A program made the translations under genes and the position numbers. From a virus (Duplodnaviria > Heunggongvirae > Uroviricota > Caudoviricetes): a stretch of 55,409 bases of DNA. The notes beneath the pieces are model-generated. The model made no database searches. It was not told the DNA's origin and was given only the letters and a program-made list of their open reading frames with translations. The DNA lies in the IMG/VR virus record IMGVR_UViG_2531839531_000009, one strand, 5' to 3'. Position 1 is the first letter of the stretch; every line of letters starts with the position of its first letter. Below are positions 1 through 9,727 of this stretch, one piece after another.

Positions 1-70
1 TCACAAAAACGTAACCACACTGCCAATAGCCAGAGAAATATAATTTTTTTTGCGATTTTTTAGAACTGAC

Positions 71-130
71 ACAACGTGAAACAACGAGACACCACGACGA
101 ACAACGGCGAACAATCTGGAACAAACTTGA
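71..130. repeat. six direct repeats phased at 10 bp (AC[A/C]A-initiated decamers) upstream of alpA
   Basis: Read directly: acaacgtgaa / acaacgagac / accacgacga / acaacggcga / acaatctgga / acaaacttga in consecutive decamers. Confidence 0.5.
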
Positions 131-410
131 TTAACATCTGACTGACACCCTAAAAAGTTGATTTTCAGTCGTTTTACTGGCTTTTTGTACATTGGCGAAT
201 CACTCTTAAAAACATGTAAAAAAGGCGTAAAAACAGAATTTTATGCCTTTGCACCACAATGAATTAAAAGAGTTTTTATTCTCATTACCACACTTCTGTA
301 AAATGACCGCCGCCAGTGTTTGCCATTCCATAAACACCCTGACACAATCCGACGCACCACAACACAATAGGACACCAAATAACTCTTTAAGAAATATCAA
401 AGGGGGAATT

Positions 411-599
411 GTGTTAAGCACAGATCGCTTTATACGTGAAAAAGAATGTCAGCAACTTACAGGCTTGAGCCGTTCATGTCGGTACCGCCTGGAAAAAACC
501 GGACAATTCCCATCACGGCGTAAGCTCGGCGGTCGTTCCGTTGGCTGGTCTTTATCCGAAGTTCTGGCATGGAAGGAAAGCTGCGAGGCAGTTCACTAA
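411..599 (+). CDS. alpA: AlpA-family HTH transcriptional regulator
   Basis: GTG start inside ORF 243..599; ...LSTDRFIREKECQQLTGLSRSCRYRLEKTGQFPSRRKLGGRSVGWSLSEVLAWK resembles AlpA-type regulators of P4-like and PICI elements. Confidence 0.7.
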   Translation: MLSTDRFIREKECQQLTGLSRSCRYRLEKTGQFPSRRKLGGRSVGWSLSEVLAWKESCEAVH

Positions 600-651
600 T
601 CAGGCTGGCGGCACACAGCCGCCACCCATCCACTAATACAGAGATCTAACC

Positions 652-1842
652 ATGAATACTGGATATTCTCCCGAACAAGGGCGGGGCTTCGTTCGTCCTG
701 AAAAACAGAATCTGCAAAATTTTGCCGAAATTATTCCGGTTATTTCCGGCCTTACTGGCGGGAGTGAAACCAATATTGTTAACGCCAGAGCGTTGCAGAT
801 GTTTGATGATAAAAAGGGAGTAAATTTAACTTACACCCCTGACGGCAATCAGAATATGAGCATTATCTCTGAGTCAGGTTTCTACAAACTAATAAAAACA
901 AAAAGCGCCCCGTTGCCGGAGCGCCTTTGTGAACAATTAACCTACTGCGCAAAAAATGAATCTGAGCAGTGGGATTATATCAACCGTGTGGCGAAGCGCC
1001 ACAATTGCCGGATAACAGGCAAAACAAAGGCCACCCGCAACGGTGGCCCCTCGACACAAGCTACACGTTATCCCCAACGCATGAGCATCACCAACAATGC
1101 CACATTTGCGGCTGGTGGGCAATGTGATCAGTCAGATTTGGTTCGTTCCAAGGTTTGCAACGAGAGCTTTTTCCTGTGCTCTTTAAGGAATTTCTCAAGA
1201 GCAAAAGCACATGGCGCGAATCTTTCTGATTCATGCTCTATCTTTCTGCGCCGTCTTTTCCGTGCCGGTGATAATGTTTTGGTCAATTCTTTATCGGTCA
1301 TTGTGTTGTCCTGCATAGCAATGCGCCGTAATACCTTACACCACGGCGCTGATGGTGATTACTCTGGTTCTTTGGTCTTGCGACGCTGGAGTTCTTCGCG
1401 TGCAACGGTGACAAGCTGCCCGATTTCTTCCGCTGCTTTGATGCCGATTTGTTCGACCTTAGCCAGGGCATCCAGTGACGACACAAGGGGATTTTCTCCG
1501 CTGCCTTCTGCTTGGCGGCGGGCTATTTCTCCGCGCATGGCGGTTACGATAAATCCGGCATTGCTTTCGCCGTCCAGCTTAACGGATTCCATCCCTTGCA
1601 TAACATCTAGTGGGACTCTGACAGTTGTCAGTTGTGATTTTGCGTTTTTGTTAGCCGTTGCCATTTCTGAAACTCCTAATCATCGGTGTGTTTCAGTATA
1701 CACAAAAAAAGAAATACAAAAAGCCTTGACGTGTGTTTCATGCGCTCATAACATGAAACACACCAAAAGAATTGTTGAAATACAAAGAGCAACGCCCCGC
1801 AGTGCCGGAAACACATACGGGGCGTCTAACCACCAACGATAG
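652..1842 (+). CDS. hypothetical protein; 3' extent uncertain
   Basis: 396-codon open frame with no recognisable SD; the C-terminal third is low-complexity and overlaps a well-supported minus-strand gene at 1359..1664. Confidence 0.3.
   Translation: MNTGYSPEQGRGFVRPEKQNLQNFAEIIPVISGLTGGSETNIVNARALQMFDDKKGVNLTYTPDGNQNMSIISESGFYKLIKTKSAPLPERLCEQLTYCAKNESEQWDYINRVAKRHNCRITGKTKATRNGGPSTQATRYPQRMSITNNATFAAGGQCDQSDLVRSKVCNESFFLCSLRNFSRAKAHGANLSDSCSIFLRRLFRAGDNVLVNSLSVIVLSCIAMRRNTLHHGADGDYSGSLVLRRWSSSRATVTSCPISSAALMPICSTLARASSDDTRGFSPLPSAWRRAISPRMAVTINPALLSPSSLTDSIPCITSSGTLTVVSCDFAFLLAVAISETPNHRCVSVYTKKEIQKALTCVSCAHNMKHTKRIVEIQRATPRSAGNTYGASNHQR
1359..1664 (-). CDS. hypothetical small protein
   Basis: 101-aa ORF with protein-like, balanced composition; AGGAG about 9 nt upstream of the ATG on the minus strand. 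Confidence 0.45.
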   Translation of the reverse strand: MATANKNAKSQLTTVRVPLDVMQGMESVKLDGESNAGFIVTAMRGEIARRQAEGSGENPLVSSLDALAKVEQIGIKAAEEIGQLVTVAREELQRRKTKEPE

Positions 1843-1861
1843 CAAGATTATCGAGGCTGCT

Positions 1862-2068
1862 ATGAGAAATCATACCATACACCCGCAAGGGCGGGACTCG
1901 CACAACCTGAATAAATACATCTGGCGTTTTATCGCCCTGAGTACGGCACAACCGCGCGTGATTACCATTGAGGCCACCAGCGAACAGGAAGCCCGTCAGC
2001 AATCACCGGCTGGCTGCGTGATGGTATTCGCCGCCCGTATTCGTCAGGGGGTGCACCATGTGCAATAA
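1862..2068 (+). CDS. small protein, possibly Icd-like
   Basis: Internal ATG of ORF 1772..2068; ...NKYIWRFIALSTAQPRVITIEATSEQEARQQSPAGCVMVFAARIRQ resembles what I recall of Icd-like proteins of P4-type elements; weak. Confidence 0.3.
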   Translation: MRNHTIHPQGRDSHNLNKYIWRFIALSTAQPRVITIEATSEQEARQQSPAGCVMVFAARIRQGVHHVQ

Positions 2069-2282
2069 CACCCGTCCGGACGCAGCCGCCGAAGCAATCA
2101 AAACACTGATTGATATTTCTGTTATCGCGGACAGGGCGCATAAGCACGCTACCAGTGAAACAGAATATGCCGGGGCTTTCGTTCCTCATTCACTGGCTGT
2201 AATGCAACTTAGTGCTGATATGGCACTGAATGAGGCCAGCAAAATTATCATGGCTGATATGGAGGTGGTGAGCCATGAATAA
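2058..2282 (+). CDS. hypothetical protein
   Basis: ORF whose ATG follows a GGGGG run and overlaps the upstream stop; part of a tightly packed + strand operon. Confidence 0.35.
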   Translation: MCNNTRPDAAAEAIKTLIDISVIADRAHKHATSETEYAGAFVPHSLAVMQLSADMALNEASKIIMADMEVVSHE

Positions 2283-2487
2283 TAATGAAGCGCACTTATC
2301 TGTAGTGCTGAATGTGCCGTCAGATTATACGGGGCGCGTACTGGTGTATCTGGAAAAAGGCCGGGTTAAATGCCAGTGCCGTTTAATGGAAAACGAATTT
2401 ATCAGCACTCTTGCGGGATTTTCTGAAATGCTCACTAAATCGGGTGTTAGTGCAGACCAGTTACGCGGGGGCGATTATGCGAAATAA
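2275..2487 (+). CDS. hypothetical protein
   Basis: ORF with GGAGG-like SD (ggaggtggtgagccATG); translationally coupled to neighbours. Confidence 0.35.
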   Translation: MNNNEAHLSVVLNVPSDYTGRVLVYLEKGRVKCQCRLMENEFISTLAGFSEMLTKSGVSADQLRGGDYAK

Positions 2488-2695
2488 ACATGATATTGAA
2501 GACCTGGCATTTGAAGCCCTGCACTCTGCGAAAAAAATCAGGGAAGTCGTCAATATGTGGATGAACAGCCTTAGCACCGATGAATCCGATAGCAGAGAGG
2601 AAATTCTTATTTCTTTGTTGTTAGACCTGGCAAATACACAGGTTTCTCTGACATCTGATATTGAACTCGCCGCTAAAAATCTGCCTCTGGAGTAA
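2477..2695 (+). CDS. hypothetical protein
   Basis: Internal ATG of ORF 2411..2695 preceded by GGGGG (gcgggggcgattATG). Confidence 0.35.
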   Translation: MRNKHDIEDLAFEALHSAKKIREVVNMWMNSLSTDESDSREEILISLLLDLANTQVSLTSDIELAAKNLPLE

Positions 2696-2701
2696 AAAAA
2701 C

Positions 2702-3001
2702 ATGAAACAGAAAAATTCTGGCTTTACTGCCAGTGGTCTCCCTCGGCCTGAAATCCGCCCCGGCGATATTTTCCGGGATAACTACGGTGGCACGGTAACG
2801 ATTAAAAGCGTGGCGGGGCGGTGCGTTACTTACCGCCGTGATGGGTACGGCTATGACTGCGTGATGCCTGCTTATCAGTTCCGGCGTGATTTTTCACTGA
2901 TACAGGCCACACCACGCAAACAGCCCACCAGCAACGCAAAGGCACGGGCAAATATTCAGAAAATGAAAAACATGATTAACGCATTCAGGGGCAAAAAATG
3001 A
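2702..3001 (+). CDS. hypothetical protein
   Basis: 99-aa ORF; its stop overlaps the ATG of the replication gene (ATGA). Confidence 0.4.
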   Translation: MKQKNSGFTASGLPRPEIRPGDIFRDNYGGTVTIKSVAGRCVTYRRDGYGYDCVMPAYQFRRDFSLIQATPRKQPTSNAKARANIQKMKNMINAFRGKK

Positions 3002-4413
3002 AACTGGCACCGAACTTAAAAAAACAGCCACACGACAAAATGACCGAAGTCATTATTTTTGCGGGTAGTGATGCCTGGGCGCACGCGAAACAGTGGCAGG
3101 AACAGGACGGGCGACTTGCTGGTGATAACGTCCCGCCTGTATGGCTGGGAGACAGCCAGCTTGACGAACTGGCAGACCTGAAAATTATCGACGATGGTCG
3201 CTATTGTGTCCGGCTGTACAAGGCAGGCCACATCAAGCCGTCAAATATTAATGCTATCGGGCAAAAGCTGGCGGCGGCAGGTGTACGGGATGCGAATTAT
3301 TACCCTGATGGAATGCACAGCCAGAAGCTGGAGAACTGGCACGACTACCTGCAACGGATCCGCGAACAGGCAGAGCGCGGGGAAATACTTACTGACGAGC
3401 AATACAGCCAGCGAAAAACCACGCTACCAATGAGCATTGGATCTGCAGGGTACGACACACAGCTTGATTATGTCGTTAAGGGCGTGATTCCGGCTAATTC
3501 ATTGTGCAGCACATACGGCGCGAGCGGTTCCTATAAATCGTTCCTCGCGTGTTCCTGGGCGTGTCATGTTGCCACTGGCCGTCACTGGGGAGGCCGCAGG
3601 GTGGCGCATGGTTCGGTGATGTATGTTGTCGGTGAAGGTGGCATTGGTGTCCCCCGCCGTATCAAGGCATGGGAAATCGTTAATGATGAACGGGTGGAAA
3701 ATCTGTACCTGGTAAACCGCCCGATTTTTCCGGCAGTCCCGCTTGATGTTGATGAAATGGTCATCGCTTCCCGCCAGGTTGAACGGGAAACGGGTAAACC
3801 GGTACGCATGATTATTCTTGATACGCTGGCGCGTTGCTTTGGCGGTAATGATGAAAATGACGCGCGGGATATGGGGGCGTTTATCCGTGGATGTGACGAA
3901 CTGAAACGCCGCACAGGGGCCACGGTGCTGGTGGTTCACCATTCCGGCAAGGATGAAACAAAGGGGGCGCGTGGTTCCAGTGCATTTCGTGCATCTCTGG
4001 ACGCTGAATACCGTATTCGCCGTGAAGGTGCAGACAGTGAAGCCCTGGTTATCTCCTGCACAAAAATGAAGGACGCGGAGGAACTGAAAGAGGCCGCATA
4101 CGATTTACGTGTGGTGGAGCTTTTTACCGACACTGACGGGGAGTTAATCACGTCGCTGGTTGTTGTGGATAAGCCGCGCCCACCCGTTGAACTGGAGCGC
4201 ATCGAGGAAGCCGGGAACAAGACGGAGAATCATGCCGCGCTATGGGGCTGTATCCGTTCACGCACACAGCGCGGAGATAAATGCACTATTCCGTTGTTGC
4301 GCGATGATATGAAAAAGCTGGGGTATGAGATGAAACACTTCCGGCGCTGGCTGTACAAGCTGGAAGGTGATGGCGTTATTGCTATTGACGGTGATGACGT
4401 GCGCCCACTGTAA
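2998..4413 (+). CDS. replication protein with RecA-like (RepA/DnaB-type) ATPase domain
   Basis: 471 aa; Walker A-like YGASGSYKS and Walker B-like RMIILDTLAR...VLVVHHSGKD; resembles primase-helicase/Rep proteins of satellites and genomic islands. Confidence 0.75.
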   Translation: MKLAPNLKKQPHDKMTEVIIFAGSDAWAHAKQWQEQDGRLAGDNVPPVWLGDSQLDELADLKIIDDGRYCVRLYKAGHIKPSNINAIGQKLAAAGVRDANYYPDGMHSQKLENWHDYLQRIREQAERGEILTDEQYSQRKTTLPMSIGSAGYDTQLDYVVKGVIPANSLCSTYGASGSYKSFLACSWACHVATGRHWGGRRVAHGSVMYVVGEGGIGVPRRIKAWEIVNDERVENLYLVNRPIFPAVPLDVDEMVIASRQVERETGKPVRMIILDTLARCFGGNDENDARDMGAFIRGCDELKRRTGATVLVVHHSGKDETKGARGSSAFRASLDAEYRIRREGADSEALVISCTKMKDAEELKEAAYDLRVVELFTDTDGELITSLVVVDKPRPPVELERIEEAGNKTENHAALWGCIRSRTQRGDKCTIPLLRDDMKKLGYEMKHFRRWLYKLEGDGVIAIDGDDVRPL

Positions 4414-4607
4414 AAAGTGGGTAGTAAAAGTGGGGAGTGTGGGGAATTTAACAAAATTGAAACGTGATTCCCCACTTTCCCACCTGTATATACCCCAAAA
4501 AGTGGGGAATAAAAAACACATTGAAAAACATCACGTTAGAATCACAAAAAAAAGAAGTGGGGAGACGTTGGGTAATTTCAAAAAGTGGGTAGTAAAAGTG
4601 GGGAGCA
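4411..4607. repeat. iteron array (putative replication origin) just downstream of the replication gene
   Basis: 25-bp direct repeat aaaagtgggtagtaaaagtggggag at 4413..4437 and 4581..4605, plus extra AGTGGGGA cores and one inverted copy (tccccactttccc) between them. Confidence 0.6.
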
Positions 4608-4614
4608 GTGAGGA

Positions 4615-4866
4615 ATGACCAGAAAAACCAGAGATAAGACAGCGCCAAAATATAAAGCGTTAGACATGACAGAGCACGCCTTAAAGGTGGCAATCAGAAC
4701 GATAGACCGCCACGCTGGGGAAGGATACGCGAAAGCACACCCCGAACTGATAAGCGCATTCATGACCACGACGGCGGCAAACTTTGCCACGCTGACAGAA
4801 CGGGAGATTGCCGAAGCGGAACAGGTGACAACCATCAACATTAAAACTGGAGAGCAGACAGCATGA
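4615..4866 (+). CDS. hypothetical protein
   Basis: 83-aa ORF starting just after the iterons; stop overlaps the next start. Confidence 0.4.
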   Translation: MTRKTRDKTAPKYKALDMTEHALKVAIRTIDRHAGEGYAKAHPELISAFMTTTAANFATLTEREIAEAEQVTTINIKTGEQTA

Positions 4867-5219
4867 CAGCACAGATAGCGGCTTACGGGCGGCTGGTGGC
4901 TGACCCGCAGTTAAAGACCACCAGCAAGGGTACACAAATGACGATGGCTAGTATGGCGGTCCCCCTTCCGTGCAGCCAGGCAGATGACGGAACGGCGACG
5001 ATGTGGTTATCCGTCCTGGCGTTTGGCAGACAGGCCGACGCACTGGCAAAACACCACAAAGGCGAACTGGTGAGCGTGGCGGGTAACATGCAGGTAAGGC
5101 AGTGGACAGGCCAGAACGGCGAAACGCGGCAGGGCTGGCAGGTTATCGCAGACAGTGTAATCAGTGCCAGAACGGCGCGACCGGGCGGCAAAAAAAGGTC
5201 AACAGGACCAGGCTACTGA
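4863..5219 (+). CDS. putative single-stranded DNA-binding (SSB-like, OB-fold) protein
   Basis: 118 aa; ...WLSVLAFGRQADALAKHHKGELVSVAGNMQVRQWTGQNGETRQGWQVIADSVI has the pattern of short SSB proteins; by eye only. Confidence 0.5.
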   Translation: MTAQIAAYGRLVADPQLKTTSKGTQMTMASMAVPLPCSQADDGTATMWLSVLAFGRQADALAKHHKGELVSVAGNMQVRQWTGQNGETRQGWQVIADSVISARTARPGGKKRSTGPGY

Positions 5220-5503
5220 CGCACTGAACAGGGCAAAACAACAGTCGGGGAATGATGATCCGTACGGCGATAATATACCGTTTTAAATTCTGCAAATAAA
5301 AAAATGCCGGAAGAAAATAGATTTTCCGGCATGCTACATAAATCCCGACCAAAGGAAGTAAATACATTAACACGAATTATCAGCACTGAAGTTGTCACGG
5401 CAGATTTTATACAACATTGCACTTGGTTGCATGTATTCGCATAGCAAATATCGGTGATAGCATATATCCACAATTATTTTTAATGAATGCAAAGAGGATG
5501 CGT

Positions 5504-6544
5504 ATGGTTGATTTATATTCGCCTGCCCAGCTTGTGCAGGTGGCTAATGCTGAAGATGTGCAAAAAAAATTAAATGCGTTGTTTACCAGTTTGTTTTTCA
5601 CTCGCTCGGTAATGTTTGAATCGAGAGACATTATTCTTGATACGATCGACGATCCAAATATCCCGATCGCGGCGTTTTGCTCTCCTATGGTGGGCAGTAA
5701 GGTTTCACGAGATGAGGGATACGAATCAAAAACAATTCGCCCTGGCTATATGAAACCGAAAAGCAGCATTGATCCAAATAAGTTAGCTGTGCGCCCTGCT
5801 GGTGTGTCACCTGAGCAATACAATGCTTTTGGGGCGCGTAATATTAAAGTTAAACAGGCGATTGTAAATCAGGCTAAAGCTATTCGTGCACGTATTGAAT
5901 GGCTTGCTGTTCAGGCAATCACAACGGGGAAAAATATCATTGAGGGCGATGGTATTGAACGTTATGAGCTGGACTGGAATATAAAACCACAAAATATTAT
6001 CACGCAGTCTGGCGGTGCTGAGTGGTCAGGTAAGGATAAAGAAACTTTTGATCCAAATGATGATATTGAGAGCTACGCAGAATTTAGTGAGGGCGTCACT
6101 AATATCATCATTATGGGCGGTAATGTATGGAAGAAATACCGTTCATTCAGAGCGATAAAAGAGGCTCTGGATACCCGTCGTGGTTCTAATTCCGAACTGG
6201 AAACGGCCCTTAAAGACCTTGGTGATTCGGTGAGTTTTAAAGGGTATATGGGCGATGTTGCGATTGTTGTTTACAGCGGACGTTATACCGACGAGGACGG
6301 AACTGAAAAACATTTCCTTGATCCTGATTTGATGGTGCTTGGCAATACGGCTCTTCAGGGGATTGTCGCCTATGGCGGTATTCAGGATCCGGAGCTAATC
6401 CGAATGGGGCTGACTAAAGCCGAACTTGCACCGAAAAACTATATTGTGCCTGGTGATCCGGCTATTGAGTACGTACAAACGCACTCTGCACCACAGCCAA
6501 TACCGGCCCGCATCAATCGTTTTGTTACCGTTCGCATTGGCTAA
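5504..6544 (+). CDS. major capsid protein, lambda gpE family
   Basis: Translation from ATG 5504 (AGAGGA SD) aligns by eye along its length with lambda gpE, e.g. ITQSGGAEWSGKDKETFDPNDDIESYA and LDTRRGSNSELETALKDLG...YMGDVAIVVYSG. Confidence 0.85.
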   Translation: MVDLYSPAQLVQVANAEDVQKKLNALFTSLFFTRSVMFESRDIILDTIDDPNIPIAAFCSPMVGSKVSRDEGYESKTIRPGYMKPKSSIDPNKLAVRPAGVSPEQYNAFGARNIKVKQAIVNQAKAIRARIEWLAVQAITTGKNIIEGDGIERYELDWNIKPQNIITQSGGAEWSGKDKETFDPNDDIESYAEFSEGVTNIIIMGGNVWKKYRSFRAIKEALDTRRGSNSELETALKDLGDSVSFKGYMGDVAIVVYSGRYTDEDGTEKHFLDPDLMVLGNTALQGIVAYGGIQDPELIRMGLTKAELAPKNYIVPGDPAIEYVQTHSAPQPIPARINRFVTVRIG

Positions 6545-6553
6545 GGGGGAGCA

Positions 6554-6895
6554 ATGGCTACTCATTACACTGAACTCATGTCTGGCACTGAAGCACTGGT
6601 TACTACGCTGGGGATATTTTCAGCCAATAAAGGGGTAATACCTGCGTTTACGCCACTGATGCAGGAAGATGCAACTGGTGCGCTAGTGGTATGGGATGGA
6701 ACGAGCGCAGGCAAAGCGGTTTATGTTTCCGCTGTACAAATCGACACAGCGAAAAAAACACAGGCACAGGTTTATAAGACAGGTGTTTTAAATGTTGATG
6801 CTCTGAACTGGCCTGAGTCTGTAAAAGAACTGTCGGCAAAGGTTGCCGCGTTTGTTGGCTCAGGTATTTCTGTTCAGCCGCTGGCTCGTGTGTAA
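6554..6895 (+). CDS. head decoration protein, lambda gpD family
   Basis: 113 aa; TPLM, LVVWDGT, YKTGVLNVDALNWPE and AFVGSGISV match conserved gpD blocks (TPLM, LVAWDGT, YKSGTFRYEDVLWPE, AFAGTAISI). Confidence 0.75.
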   Translation: MATHYTELMSGTEALVTTLGIFSANKGVIPAFTPLMQEDATGALVVWDGTSAGKAVYVSAVQIDTAKKTQAQVYKTGVLNVDALNWPESVKELSAKVAAFVGSGISVQPLARV

Positions 6896-6906
6896 AGGGG
6901 GATACA

Positions 6907-7290
6907 ATGCAGAATCATTACAATGACCTTAAGCCAATTGCCGAAATGATGTATCCGGATCCAGCAGTAGAGGAATTAAAGGCTATTGCTGACAAAATGC
7001 GTTTAAGTGAACGCCTTGTTGATATGAATCAGGTGATGGAACTTACTACCCTTAGCCGTCGCACATTGCTAAACCTTGAGGCTCGCGGAGAGTTCCCCGA
7101 ACGCGTACAGGTTACGGAAGGGCGTAAGGCCTGGTATTTAAGCGAAGTGATCGACTGGATAAACAATATTCCTCGAGCTTCTGAATATTGCCGCGTACCT
7201 GTCCCAAAAAAGCCAGATGCGGCGCTATGCCTCAAGATTGAGCGTGTACGCCGCAATGCACGGGATGGTCGCTATAAGTTGATTGGTTGA
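6907..7290 (+). CDS. second AlpA/excisionase-like HTH protein
   Basis: 127 aa; ...LSRRTLLNLEARGEFPERVQVTEGRKAWYLSEVIDWI is an AlpA-type helix-turn-helix. Confidence 0.55.
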   Translation: MQNHYNDLKPIAEMMYPDPAVEELKAIADKMRLSERLVDMNQVMELTTLSRRTLLNLEARGEFPERVQVTEGRKAWYLSEVIDWINNIPRASEYCRVPVPKKPDAALCLKIERVRRNARDGRYKLIG

Positions 7291-7345
7291 TGAAATTAGG
7301 GCCCGTTCTGGCTGGCGGGTCCTTTCCGGCGATCCGGTAGGCTAC

Positions 7346-7380
7346 GGGGCGGCGACCTTGCGGATTTTCGCTATTTATGA
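7346..7380. other. lambda-type cohesive-end site (cosN-like)
   Basis: ctacgGGGCGGCGACCTtGCGGaTTTTCGCTATTTATGA matches the lambda left cohesive end GGGCGGCGACCT and the following ~20 nt with two mismatches as recalled; lies ~110 bp upstream of the Nu1-like gene. Confidence 0.6.
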
Positions 7381-7491
7381 GCCTTTTCGGGTTGGTGGTG
7401 GTGGTTTTGTTTTTCGCTCTATCTCTATGAATAAAAAGGGAAAGATAACACCAACACACCAACCTGAAACCTTAACTAAGTGGGGATATTG

Positions 7492-8034
7492 ATGAAATCG
7501 CACCTGATGAACAAAAAAACTATGGCGCAAAGCTGCCGCGTAAGTGCGACAGCGTTCGACAAGTGGGGAGTAACTCCCGTTGAGCGTAAAGGCCGTGAGG
7601 CGTTTTATGATGTTGCTAGCGTGATAGACAATAGGGTTAACAATGCAATTAACCAGCTTACAAACGACAAAGGCGAGATTGATGATGATGAACTTTTACG
7701 CGTAAGAATCAGATTGCTGACAGCACAGGCGGAAGCGCAGGAACTTAAAAACGAGCGCGAACGCGGCGAGGTGATTGATACAAAGTTTTGCATCTACGCG
7801 ATTTCAAAACTAGCGAGTCAGATTTCATCAATCATGGACAGCCTCCCGCTCACAATGCAAAGGCGCTTTCCCGATATAAGGCCGTATATGCTGGATGAAC
7901 TAAAAAGGGAAATAGCCAAAGCATGTAACGCATGTGCAAGACTTGACGAAAACCTGCCACAGATACTGGCTGATTACCTGATGGAAACTACCGGAAGCGC
8001 GCCTGAGAAGTTGCTACAGAACAAAGGCGAGTAA
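7492..8034 (+). CDS. terminase small subunit, lambda Nu1 family
   Basis: Conserved blocks shared with Nu1: LTAQAEAQELKNERERGEVIDTKFC, SIMDSLPLTMQRRFPD; start 7492 (GGGG 6 nt upstream) or 7507. Confidence 0.8.
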   Translation: MKSHLMNKKTMAQSCRVSATAFDKWGVTPVERKGREAFYDVASVIDNRVNNAINQLTNDKGEIDDDELLRVRIRLLTAQAEAQELKNERERGEVIDTKFCIYAISKLASQISSIMDSLPLTMQRRFPDIRPYMLDELKREIAKACNACARLDENLPQILADYLMETTGSAPEKLLQNKGE

Positions 8035-8107
8035 CCGCCGCCCCGTAACGGGCCATAATTCCAGGAAGGACCTGACGACACCAGGCTATCAGAGCGATGG
8101 GGGCACA

Positions 8108-8389
8108 ATGACAGAAGCCGAAATACTGCGATTAATCCGCCGCGTTACCGGAATCAGCCAGCAGGCTGACGAACAGGCCACGCAGCCGGACAGCGTGACC
8201 GCTGAAAATTATGTGCGTGTTGTTGCTGAGGTGATGCGCCGTGACGGTATCGAGCTTAACGGCGTGGATATGCGCAACATACGCACCAGAGTTCTGGAGA
8301 TGTTGTCGTACCGTCGCCGCGTGCAGATGTACCAAGAGAAAGAAAAAATTACTTACCACTGGAAGAAGCCGGAACGGTTACGACGTTAA
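8108..8389 (+). CDS. hypothetical protein
   Basis: 93-aa ORF directly after the small terminase gene; no recognisable family. Confidence 0.4.
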   Translation: MTEAEILRLIRRVTGISQQADEQATQPDSVTAENYVRVVAEVMRRDGIELNGVDMRNIRTRVLEMLSYRRRVQMYQEKEKITYHWKKPERLRR

Positions 8390-8395
8390 CTTGTG

Positions 8396-8430
8396 GTGAC
8401 ATACCGTGACGGAGAGTGACACACAGTGAC
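8396..8430. repeat. four GTGAC motifs at exact 10-bp spacing
   Basis: GTGAC at 8396, 8406, 8416 and 8426, immediately after the last island gene. Confidence 0.5.
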
Positions 8431-9163
8431 AAAAAAGACGGTATTTAAATCGGGTGGTGTTTAATACCCCCAGGGGGATAGAAATCCCTACACCTCATTG
8501 CTTATGGGACCGCCCGCCTACCCTTGTTCACATCGCCACAGGTTCGAAAACTTTTTTTGGGAAGGTGTGCACGGGATTGATAGATGAGGTCTATCTATAA
8601 AAAATCACAAAATCCGCGCCATTGCTGGATCCGCCAAAAATCCCCCACCTTACGGCAGACAAAGAAAACGCGAATTATGGGCCTGTTGCAGAGAAAAAAG
8701 GTCTCACTAGTTTTGCGCACCCTAGCATCGAGGTTCGTCAGCCTCCCATCAGCAACCAGATAACTAATCTCGCTGGTGGGCATGATGCCGATATGGGGAC
8801 TTCCATAACGGTTTATCCGTGATCATCCACCAGCTTCATGGCGGATAGCCGGAAAATGATAACGGTATAGCCCGTCGCTTGTGTCTATTTGTTCCGCATT
8901 GTTGCATACAGTGCACCGAACGGTGTAGTTAATGGTGTAGTTAATTTGCGATTTTTAACGTTATTTGCAGCGATGTTTGTTGGTTAAATTCAATAAGTTA
9001 TGCGCATTTAATTATAAATATCGTGAATGAATAATCATGCATAAGCATTTTGCTTAAAATATCGGCAATATTTGGAACTTATTACTGGAATTTTGGGTAA
9101 TACGTTGTTGGACCGACCCGGTCTGGTTATCATATCGCGCTCTTAATTGCGGGAGGATGTAAC

Positions 9164-9727
9164 ATGAACCTTGACGACAAATCGCTGTTTCTTGACGCCA
9201 TGGAAGATGTCCAGCCGCTGAAACGTGCTACCGATGTCCACTGGCATCCAACGCGTAACCAACGTGCGCCGCAGCGTATCGACACGCTGCAGCTTGATAA
9301 TTTCCTCACCACCGGATTTCTCGACATCATCCCACTAAGTCAGCCGCTGGAGTTTCGGCGGGAAGGGTTGCAACATGGGGTGCTGGATAAGCTGCGCAGT
9401 GGTAAATATCCGCAACAGGCGAGCCTGAATCTTTTGCGCCAGCCGGTGGAAGAGTGCCGCAAAATGATGTTCAGTTTCATTCAACAAGCCATGGCTGATG
9501 GTTTGCGTAACGTGCTGATTATTCATGGCAAAGGACGGGATGATAAATCGCATGCCAATATTGTCCGCAGCTATGTGGCGCGCTGGCTGACCGAATTTGA
9601 TGATGTTCAGGCATATTGCACTGCGCTACCGCATCATGGCGGCAGCGGGGCGTGTTACGTCGCACTACGTAAAACGGCGCAGGCGAAGCAAGAAAACTGG
9701 GAGCGCCACGCTAAGCGCAGTCGTTGA
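9164..9727 (+). CDS. smrA: Smr-domain endonuclease SmrA (YdaL)
   Basis: 187-aa ORF with the Smr-domain motif LIIHGKGRDD...VRSYVARWL; position upstream of dgcM as in K-12. Confidence 0.85.
   Translation: MNLDDKSLFLDAMEDVQPLKRATDVHWHPTRNQRAPQRIDTLQLDNFLTTGFLDIIPLSQPLEFRREGLQHGVLDKLRSGKYPQQASLNLLRQPVEECRKMMFSFIQQAMADGLRNVLIIHGKGRDDKSHANIVRSYVARWLTEFDDVQAYCTALPHHGGSGACYVALRKTAQAKQENWERHAKRSR

Follow-up and report, generated by a model that had tools for sequence, protein, structure and literature searches.

What is the role of the short repeats that follow a replication gene in a 55,409-nucleotide record of a Caudoviricetes virus (IMG/VR IMGVR_UViG_2531839531_000009), the whole of which we call the window? 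The first-pass annotation, made from the letters alone, had read these repeats (4411-4607) as an iteron origin placed immediately downstream of a replication ATPase gene. We conclude, with a probability of roughly 0.88, that 4411-4614 is the vegetative replication origin of a phage-inducible chromosomal island (PICI) of the EcCICFT073 type, and that it is used by the island's own initiator, Rep (2998-4413). The iteron-origin reading is borne out by the PICI gene order, by a published origin at the same position, and by co-variation between the iterons and Rep. The finding is, in our judgement, correct but ordinary: this kind of origin was first described in 2018, and the island family has already been catalogued. 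The one point that may be new is a prediction, namely that a single Rep residue reads a single iteron base.

An iteron array fills the gap behind rep

An exact direct repeat of 26 bp, AAAAAGTGGGTAGTAAAAGTGGGGAG, occurs twice, at 4412-4437 and 4580-4605, with 168 bp from start to start and two iterons in each copy; the copy number and the spacing of about 168 bp had been recognized at first pass, and the length, given there as 25 bp, is one base short. The 9-mer AAGTGGGKA is present nine times in the window against 0.66 expected, a count that 0 of 100 shuffles reached, and seven of the nine copies lie within 4415-4604, six on the plus strand and one on the minus strand (4469-4477). When up to two mismatches are allowed, 10 sites fall in 4380-4650, a density 19-fold above that of the rest of the window, and the further cores previously reported in both orientations are thereby confirmed as about ten AAGTGGGKA-like iterons on both strands. 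The array spans the entire 201-bp gap from the rep stop codon TAA (4411-4413) to the ribosome-binding site and start codon (ATG, 4615) of the following gene, and has these parts.

4412-4445, plus strand: left outer iteron cluster, comprising the first copy of the 26-bp repeat (iterons 4415-4423 and 4428-4436) and a degenerate iteron at 4437-4445
4446-4466, no strand given: AT-rich spacer, 70-75% A+T, its sequence not conserved in relatives
4469-4508, no strand given: core module of inverted iterons and a direct iteron diverging from CCTGTATATAC; proposed first melting/loading site
4509-4551, no strand given: A-rich stretch, 70-80% A+T; candidate DNA-unwinding element
4555-4614, plus strand: right outer iteron cluster, four to five direct iterons including the second copy of the 26-bp repeat (4580-4605)

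Within the core module, inverted iterons on the minus strand (4469-4477, exact; 4477-4485, degenerate) diverge from a direct iteron on the plus strand (4500-4508), and a conserved CCTGTATATAC element at 4483-4493 lies between the divergent iterons. The module also contains an inverted repeat, I2, of 12 nt with 100% complementarity; CCTGTATA is unchanged across seven E. coli origins. The pattern of two iterons that diverge from a TATATA-like core (here at 4485-4492) recurs in 60 of 83 related loci, compared with 1 of 2490 shuffles. GC content in the region 4509-4551 goes down to 0.30 in 60-nt windows, and A+T content is 0.65-0.80 in 20-nt windows. The right cluster consists of iterons at 4555-4563, 4583-4591 and 4596-4604 together with degenerate copies at 4566-4574 and 4606-4614, the last of which overlaps the ribosome-binding site of the next gene.

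Left and right clusters, opposed core copies and two AT-rich stretches (4446-4466 and 4509-4551) make up the layout of PICI- and SaPI-type origins (SaPI, Staphylococcus aureus pathogenicity island). In PICIs the origin lies immediately 3' of the initiator gene, with one set of iterons on each side of an AT-rich region (Fillol-Salom et al. 2018, ISME J, PMC6092414), and the SaPI ori has 6-12 short iterons on either side of an AT-rich centre, in opposite orientations (Qiao et al. 2022, PMC9371898). The rep-ori segment of EcCICFT073 drove plasmid maintenance, and deletion of rep or of ori lowered it (PMC6092414). That island adjoins phoQ in CFT073, and at the syntenic position it encodes a 584-aa primase-family initiator, Pri-Rep, and carries TCTACC/GGTAGA iterons in many copies and both orientations. 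The position matches as well, for the array begins at the rep stop codon here and likewise in about 80 related loci.

The first-pass annotation had asked whether the repeats fall inside a conserved coding region in homologues. They are intergenic in every annotated relative, and single-base indels separate relatives within the array region, so the array is not part of a conserved coding region; three open reading frames (ORFs) that overlap it (4367-4618, plus strand; 4448-4693, minus strand; 4464-4592, plus strand) were rejected as coding on the same two grounds. An Rfam scan of 1-9500 matched no family, and a modest single-strand fold (z = -2.5) is accounted for by the inverted iterons.

The initiator is a RepA-type helicase with a predicted winged helix

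The gene upstream of the array had been noted as a replication ATPase, and both Pfam and RefSeq agree. It encodes the following protein and domains.

2998-4413, plus strand: rep, initiator-helicase of 471 aa (Pfam AAA_25, E=3e-44; RefSeq 'helicase RepA family protein')
aa 1-131 (2998-3390), plus strand: N-terminal alpha/beta domain, common to EcCICFT073 Pri-Rep
aa ~152-390, plus strand: core, a RecA-type AAA_25/RepA-like ATPase (Pfam; PDB RSF1010 RepA 1g8y, E=0.004)
aa 410-471 (coding 4225-4410), plus strand: C-terminal winged helix, predicted iteron reader (AlphaFold model, Foldseek, co-variation)

Residues 1-131 share 63% identity with the N-terminus of EcCICFT073 Pri-Rep, and the remainder of the two proteins is unrelated; these initiators, judged by such sequence comparison, are mosaics. 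Because the N-terminal domain is common to two initiators with different iterons, it is not the origin-specific reader, and it probably has an origin-independent role, for instance in recruiting a partner. Many 'DNA primase family' genes of E. coli islands share the DNA that encodes this domain (2998-3390), at 75-94% identity.

In the AlphaFold model of full-length Rep, confidence is high for three parts: the alpha/beta domain at the N-terminus, most of the RecA-like core and the last 62 residues. A fold search with this model hinted, for the core, only at T7 gp4 and RadA/Rad51; because inter-domain confidence was low the search was mostly uninformative, and the C-terminal domain was therefore modelled separately. 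Modelled alone, it reaches a predicted local distance difference test score of about 95 and has a helix-helix-helix-beta hairpin topology, and its leading Foldseek matches in the PDB are winged helices: LexA-DNA (3jso), DtxR/IdeR, the winged helices of MCM4 and MCM8, and the N-terminal domain of DnaD (probability 0.9-0.99, root-mean-square deviation 2-3 A over 60-70 residues). Helix 3 of a winged helix is the usual recognition helix, and His447 (codon CAC, 4336-4338) is predicted to stand at its N-terminal end. Rep is thus predicted to be a helicase whose winged-helix C-terminus reads the iterons, as in SaPI Reps, with a helicase class unlike theirs.

Iteron sequence co-varies with the Rep C-terminus

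A scan of one genome per species yielded 80 further loci, from Citrobacter, Xenorhabdus, Pantoea, Kosakonia, Pectobacterium, Serratia, Morganella, Dickeya and two marine gammaproteobacteria, and nearly all of them carry AAGTG-N-GG iterons no more than 260 bp after the rep stop codon. Across the 68 loci that were scored, in Enterobacterales and beyond, the residue that precedes F in the C-terminal motif K-x-F-x-R-W-L predicts base 4 of the iteron: G accompanies H in 10 of 11 loci and K in all 28 (GTGGGGG), A accompanies N in all 21, and C accompanies S in all 8. Expressed by iteron, H or K is found with GTGGGG, N with GTGAGG and S with GTGCGG, and no mismatched pairing occurs; a Gly at position 447 is paired with GTGCG iterons. 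When both characters are mapped on a neighbour-joining tree of the ATPase core, at least nine changes are needed for the residue, at least eight for the base and nine for the two combined, so residue and base change together.

Individual loci tell the same story at closer range. The Rep of P0030/L089 equals the window Rep over the last 77 aa except for H447N, and its origin has seven to eight AAGTGAGG iterons. Seven E. coli islands with RepA-type initiators keep a common layout of the gap but have divergent spacers, and all iterons of an origin switch together, from GTGGGG to GTGAGG/GTGAGA or to GTGAGT. The Rep of one locus, L006, resembles that of L005 over aa 1-400 and that of L007 in the last 60 aa, and its iterons are of the L007 type. 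In the loci L089-L092 the gene that follows the array is unrelated to the 83-aa ORF of the window, and the array still adjoins rep. Two of these E. coli islands, L089 and L090, also have a second core module (inverted iteron, GCGTATATATAAGG, direct AAGTGAGT iteron) about 270-320 nt past the rep stop codon. This module follows the main array, the gap up to the unrelated gene being longer there, and may represent a duplicate or an auxiliary loading site.

We put somewhat better than even odds on the idea that a one-residue/one-base code sets replicon specificity, with residue 447 reading base 4 (His/Lys-G, Asn-A, Ser/Gly-C). If this is true, single substitutions accompanied by concerted iteron change would create mutually orthogonal origins, several related PICIs could share a cell, and the code would give designable orthogonal replicons. 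The code predicts that an H447N swap retargets Rep to GTGAGG iterons, which bears on the diversification of satellite replicons and the avoidance of cross-talk; no description of it was found in the literature searched.

The same comparisons bear on whether the repeats are an origin at all. They might serve instead as operators through which a transcription regulator (Rep as autoregulator, the AlpA-like protein or the 83-aa protein) controls the ssb-capsid operon, a reading that suits the end of the array on the ribosome-binding site of the next gene and the unidirectional transcription of the island, which places the region within or between operons. A scan of 4200-4900, however, found no sigma-70-like promoter and no terminator; moreover, the iterons track the C-terminal domain of Rep and stay by rep when the downstream gene is swapped for unrelated genes, and EcCICFT073 has a tested origin in the syntenic region (PMC6092414). 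We therefore regard operators in place of an origin as quite unlikely, and a regulatory side-role for Rep binding would be compatible with origin function.

Conservation speaks in the same way to the idea that the repeats are non-functional debris of slippage or duplication, or a decayed remnant hitch-hiking with the 3' end of rep. Xenorhabdus, Pectobacterium, Morganella and marine gammaproteobacteria share the layout with E. coli, iterons are kept while spacers diverge, and all copies in a locus share the same variant base. Some decay is possible in an island that is chromosomal and whose gene for a single-stranded DNA-binding protein (SSB) is annotated as frameshifted in an identical copy, yet debris is a very unlikely explanation.

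The host element is a PICI of E. coli

The element that would use this origin is widespread. At least part of the rep-ori-ssb segment is present in 1872 of 5426 complete E. coli genomes, and at least 80% of the segment in 546, with up to nine related places per genome; the satellite is therefore very common in E. coli (about a third of complete genomes), and annotation pipelines leave its ori region blank. Strain VG12A2 (L001) has an identical copy, part of an island of about 10.2 kb that lies between abgR and smrA. The genes of this island are, in order, an integrase, a helix-turn-helix protein (alpA), YlcI, an Icd-like protein, small ORFs, DUF4222 and the RepA helicase, then the gap, and after it the 83-aa ORF, SSB, major capsid protein (capsid E), head decoration protein (D), an AlpA-like helix-turn-helix protein, a Nu1-like small terminase (terS) and a 93-aa ORF. 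The window starts directly behind the tyrosine integrase gene, and only the right end of the island lies within it.

Attachment (att) repeats delimit the island. CGGTGTAGTTAATGGTGTAGTTAATT, the att listed for EcCIDI14, occurs at both island ends in VG12A2, about 10.2 kb apart, and in the window at about 8921-8946. The att listed for EcCIEC2733.1 is ACATTATTAATATCGTGA, of which a copy with three mismatches lies at the right end (9009-9026); no exact copy is in the window, and the left end falls outside it. Because both att pairs flank the island in VG12A2, the exact crossover site is ambiguous. An island at the lysR(abgR)-smrA site has been catalogued as EcCIEC2733.1, and the genome of EcCIDI14, likewise catalogued, matches the rep-ori of the window at 97.9% identity (PMC6092414).

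The island is thus discrete, with a specific chromosomal site, att direct repeats and an integrase at one end. Its genes run in one direction as int - alpA - rep - ori followed by packaging genes, the same order as in EcCICFT073, and neither the annotation of the VG12A2 copy nor Pfam and PHROG scans revealed portal, protease, tail or lysis genes in it. In addition, it carries a cosN sequence and a gene of the Phage_Nu1 family with a putative Rpp role.

7347-7358, no strand given: lambda cosN sequence GGGCGGCGACCT, exact, ~130 bp upstream of the Nu1-like gene
7480-8034, no strand given: Phage_Nu1 family small terminase/Rpp-like gene (Pfam)

These features support the assignment of the host element, by its gene content and sites, to the EcCICFT073-type Gram-negative PICIs of the E. 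coli chromosome.

The packaging genes raise a further alternative for the array, since lambda cosB is likewise built of repeated TerS-binding sites: the repeats could be packaging-recognition sites (cosB R-like or pac) for the Nu1-like small terminase/Rpp. Two further exact copies of AAGTGGGGA at the start of the Nu1-like gene, at 7478-7486 and 7561-7569 and 83 bp apart, would fit such a role. The exact cosN at 7347-7358, however, is 2.7 kb from the array and stands in the lambda layout that is also described for EcCICFT073 cos sites; it is probably the cos site of the island, and the G/T-rich stretch at 7390-7410 together with the sequence up to the gene start would correspond to cosB. Nor do the iterons co-vary with terS; they co-vary with Rep, and terS of L007, an island with GTGAG iterons at its origin, has the 7561 copy at the corresponding codon position (F-D-K-W-G). 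A packaging role for the array is accordingly extremely unlikely, and the 7561 copy looks like a coding constraint or a coincidence and not a Rep site. The 7478 copy overlaps the ribosome-binding site of the Nu1-like gene.

Comparison with known replication systems

The island resembles EcCICFT073 in element type, in gene order, in having the ori 3' of the initiator gene and then a small ORF and ssb, and in its bidirectional short iterons around AT-rich DNA. It differs in its RepA-like AAA_25 motor with a C-terminal winged helix and in its AAGTGGGKA iterons, and only the N-terminal 131 aa of the initiators are common to both. A literature search with the iteron sequence returned only irrelevant primer matches.

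SaPI replication origins are reportedly the subject of work by Ubeda et al. The likeness to SaPIs lies in the ori directly downstream of rep, in opposed short iterons around an AT-rich centre, and in an initiator that is a helicase with a (here predicted) winged helix; the SaPI Rep is a self-loading helicase whose C-terminal winged-helix domain reads the iterons (PMC9371898). SaPI Reps, in contrast, are reported to be AAA+ helicases of the superfamily-III clade (PMC9371898), whereas the core here is of RecA type, akin to RSF1010 RepA and weakly to T7 gp4. SaPI iterons measure 5-6 bp against 9-13 bp here, and there is no sequence homology.

RepA of the IncQ plasmid RSF1010 and the ATPase core here are members of one family (Pfam AAA_25; 1g8y, E=0.004). 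In IncQ plasmids a separate initiator, RepC, binds the iterons, and RepA is the helicase only; Rep here, unlike RepA, carries its own predicted winged-helix domain and an extra N-terminal domain. P4 is also a phage satellite of E. coli, and its alpha protein is an initiator-helicase that binds short ori repeats through a C-terminal domain. Alpha, however, combines a primase with an SF3 helicase, and P4 needs a distant second repeat cluster (crr). No co-varying second iteron cluster was found here, and the other window copies (7478, 7561) do not co-vary. A P4-crr-like second Rep-binding locus at 7478/7561 was rejected: the 7561 copy is conserved in L007 in spite of its GTGAG iterons, and the 7478 copy is absent from this one comparator.

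Classical iteron plasmids (pPS10, F, R6K, P1) are similar in their direct initiator sites beside an AT-rich unwinding element and in their winged-helix readers. Their initiators, of the Rep_3 or RepA-WH1-WH2 type, have no helicase function; their iterons measure 17-22 bp, and their origins contain DnaA boxes and rely on DnaA, DnaB and DnaC. No Rep_3 match was found by Pfam, even when the terminal domains were searched at E<=10, and 4400-4630 contains no DnaA box or IHF site at up to one mismatch and no GATC. The same origin site scan gave one weak Fis-like match, which was disregarded.

A model for initiation

We propose that a helper phage would induce the island, which would then excise. Rep would bind the AAGTGGGKA iterons through its C-terminal winged helix, with H447 reading the fourth base of the GTG-G-GG core. 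Bound to the opposed iterons around TATATA and to the outer tandem iterons, it would distort or melt the TATATA core, the AT-rich DNA (4446-4466, 4509-4551), or both, and the RecA-type hexameric helicase would then load itself at the melted DNA without DnaA or a separate loader, as has been proposed for SaPI Reps. The amplified island would be packaged via the cos site at 7347.

Several points weigh against the origin reading or parts of it. No more than about 100 bp separates the codons for the Rep C-terminus from the iterons, and block recombination could explain part of the co-variation; because linkage moves both as a block, the counts overstate the weight of the missing mismatched residue/base combinations. 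This linkage is the chief caveat, although it accounts less readily for the H447N case and for iteron copies that all change in concert. The Foldseek E-values for the small winged-helix domain are weak (at least 0.1), though the leading matches agree on the fold, and a domain of this size usually gives E-values this weak. A recognisable catalytic domain of a primase is missing from the island, and the model does not account for priming. The origin that was tested, that of EcCICFT073, works with iterons and a motor domain unrelated to those here, and the literature searched held no functional test of this RepA-type rep-ori.

Neighbouring genes

Two small genes follow the origin.

4615-4866, plus strand: 83-aa protein of unknown function, phrog_1231 (PHROG)
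4863-5219, plus strand: SSB homologue, 118 aa in the window

The SSB homologue is annotated as frameshifted in the identical RefSeq copy (a pseudogene of 424 nt), and relatives encode 136 aa. Upstream of rep, an ATG-started ORF of 396 aa on the plus strand (652-1842) is unannotated in the RefSeq island copy, and a YlcI/YnfO-family gene is annotated inside it on the opposite strand (1359-1664, minus). The 396-aa ORF has weak similarity to anti-repressors (Ant/Bro-N) at aa 50-85, and related islands carry pseudogene fragments at this position, including an 'ash family' remnant.

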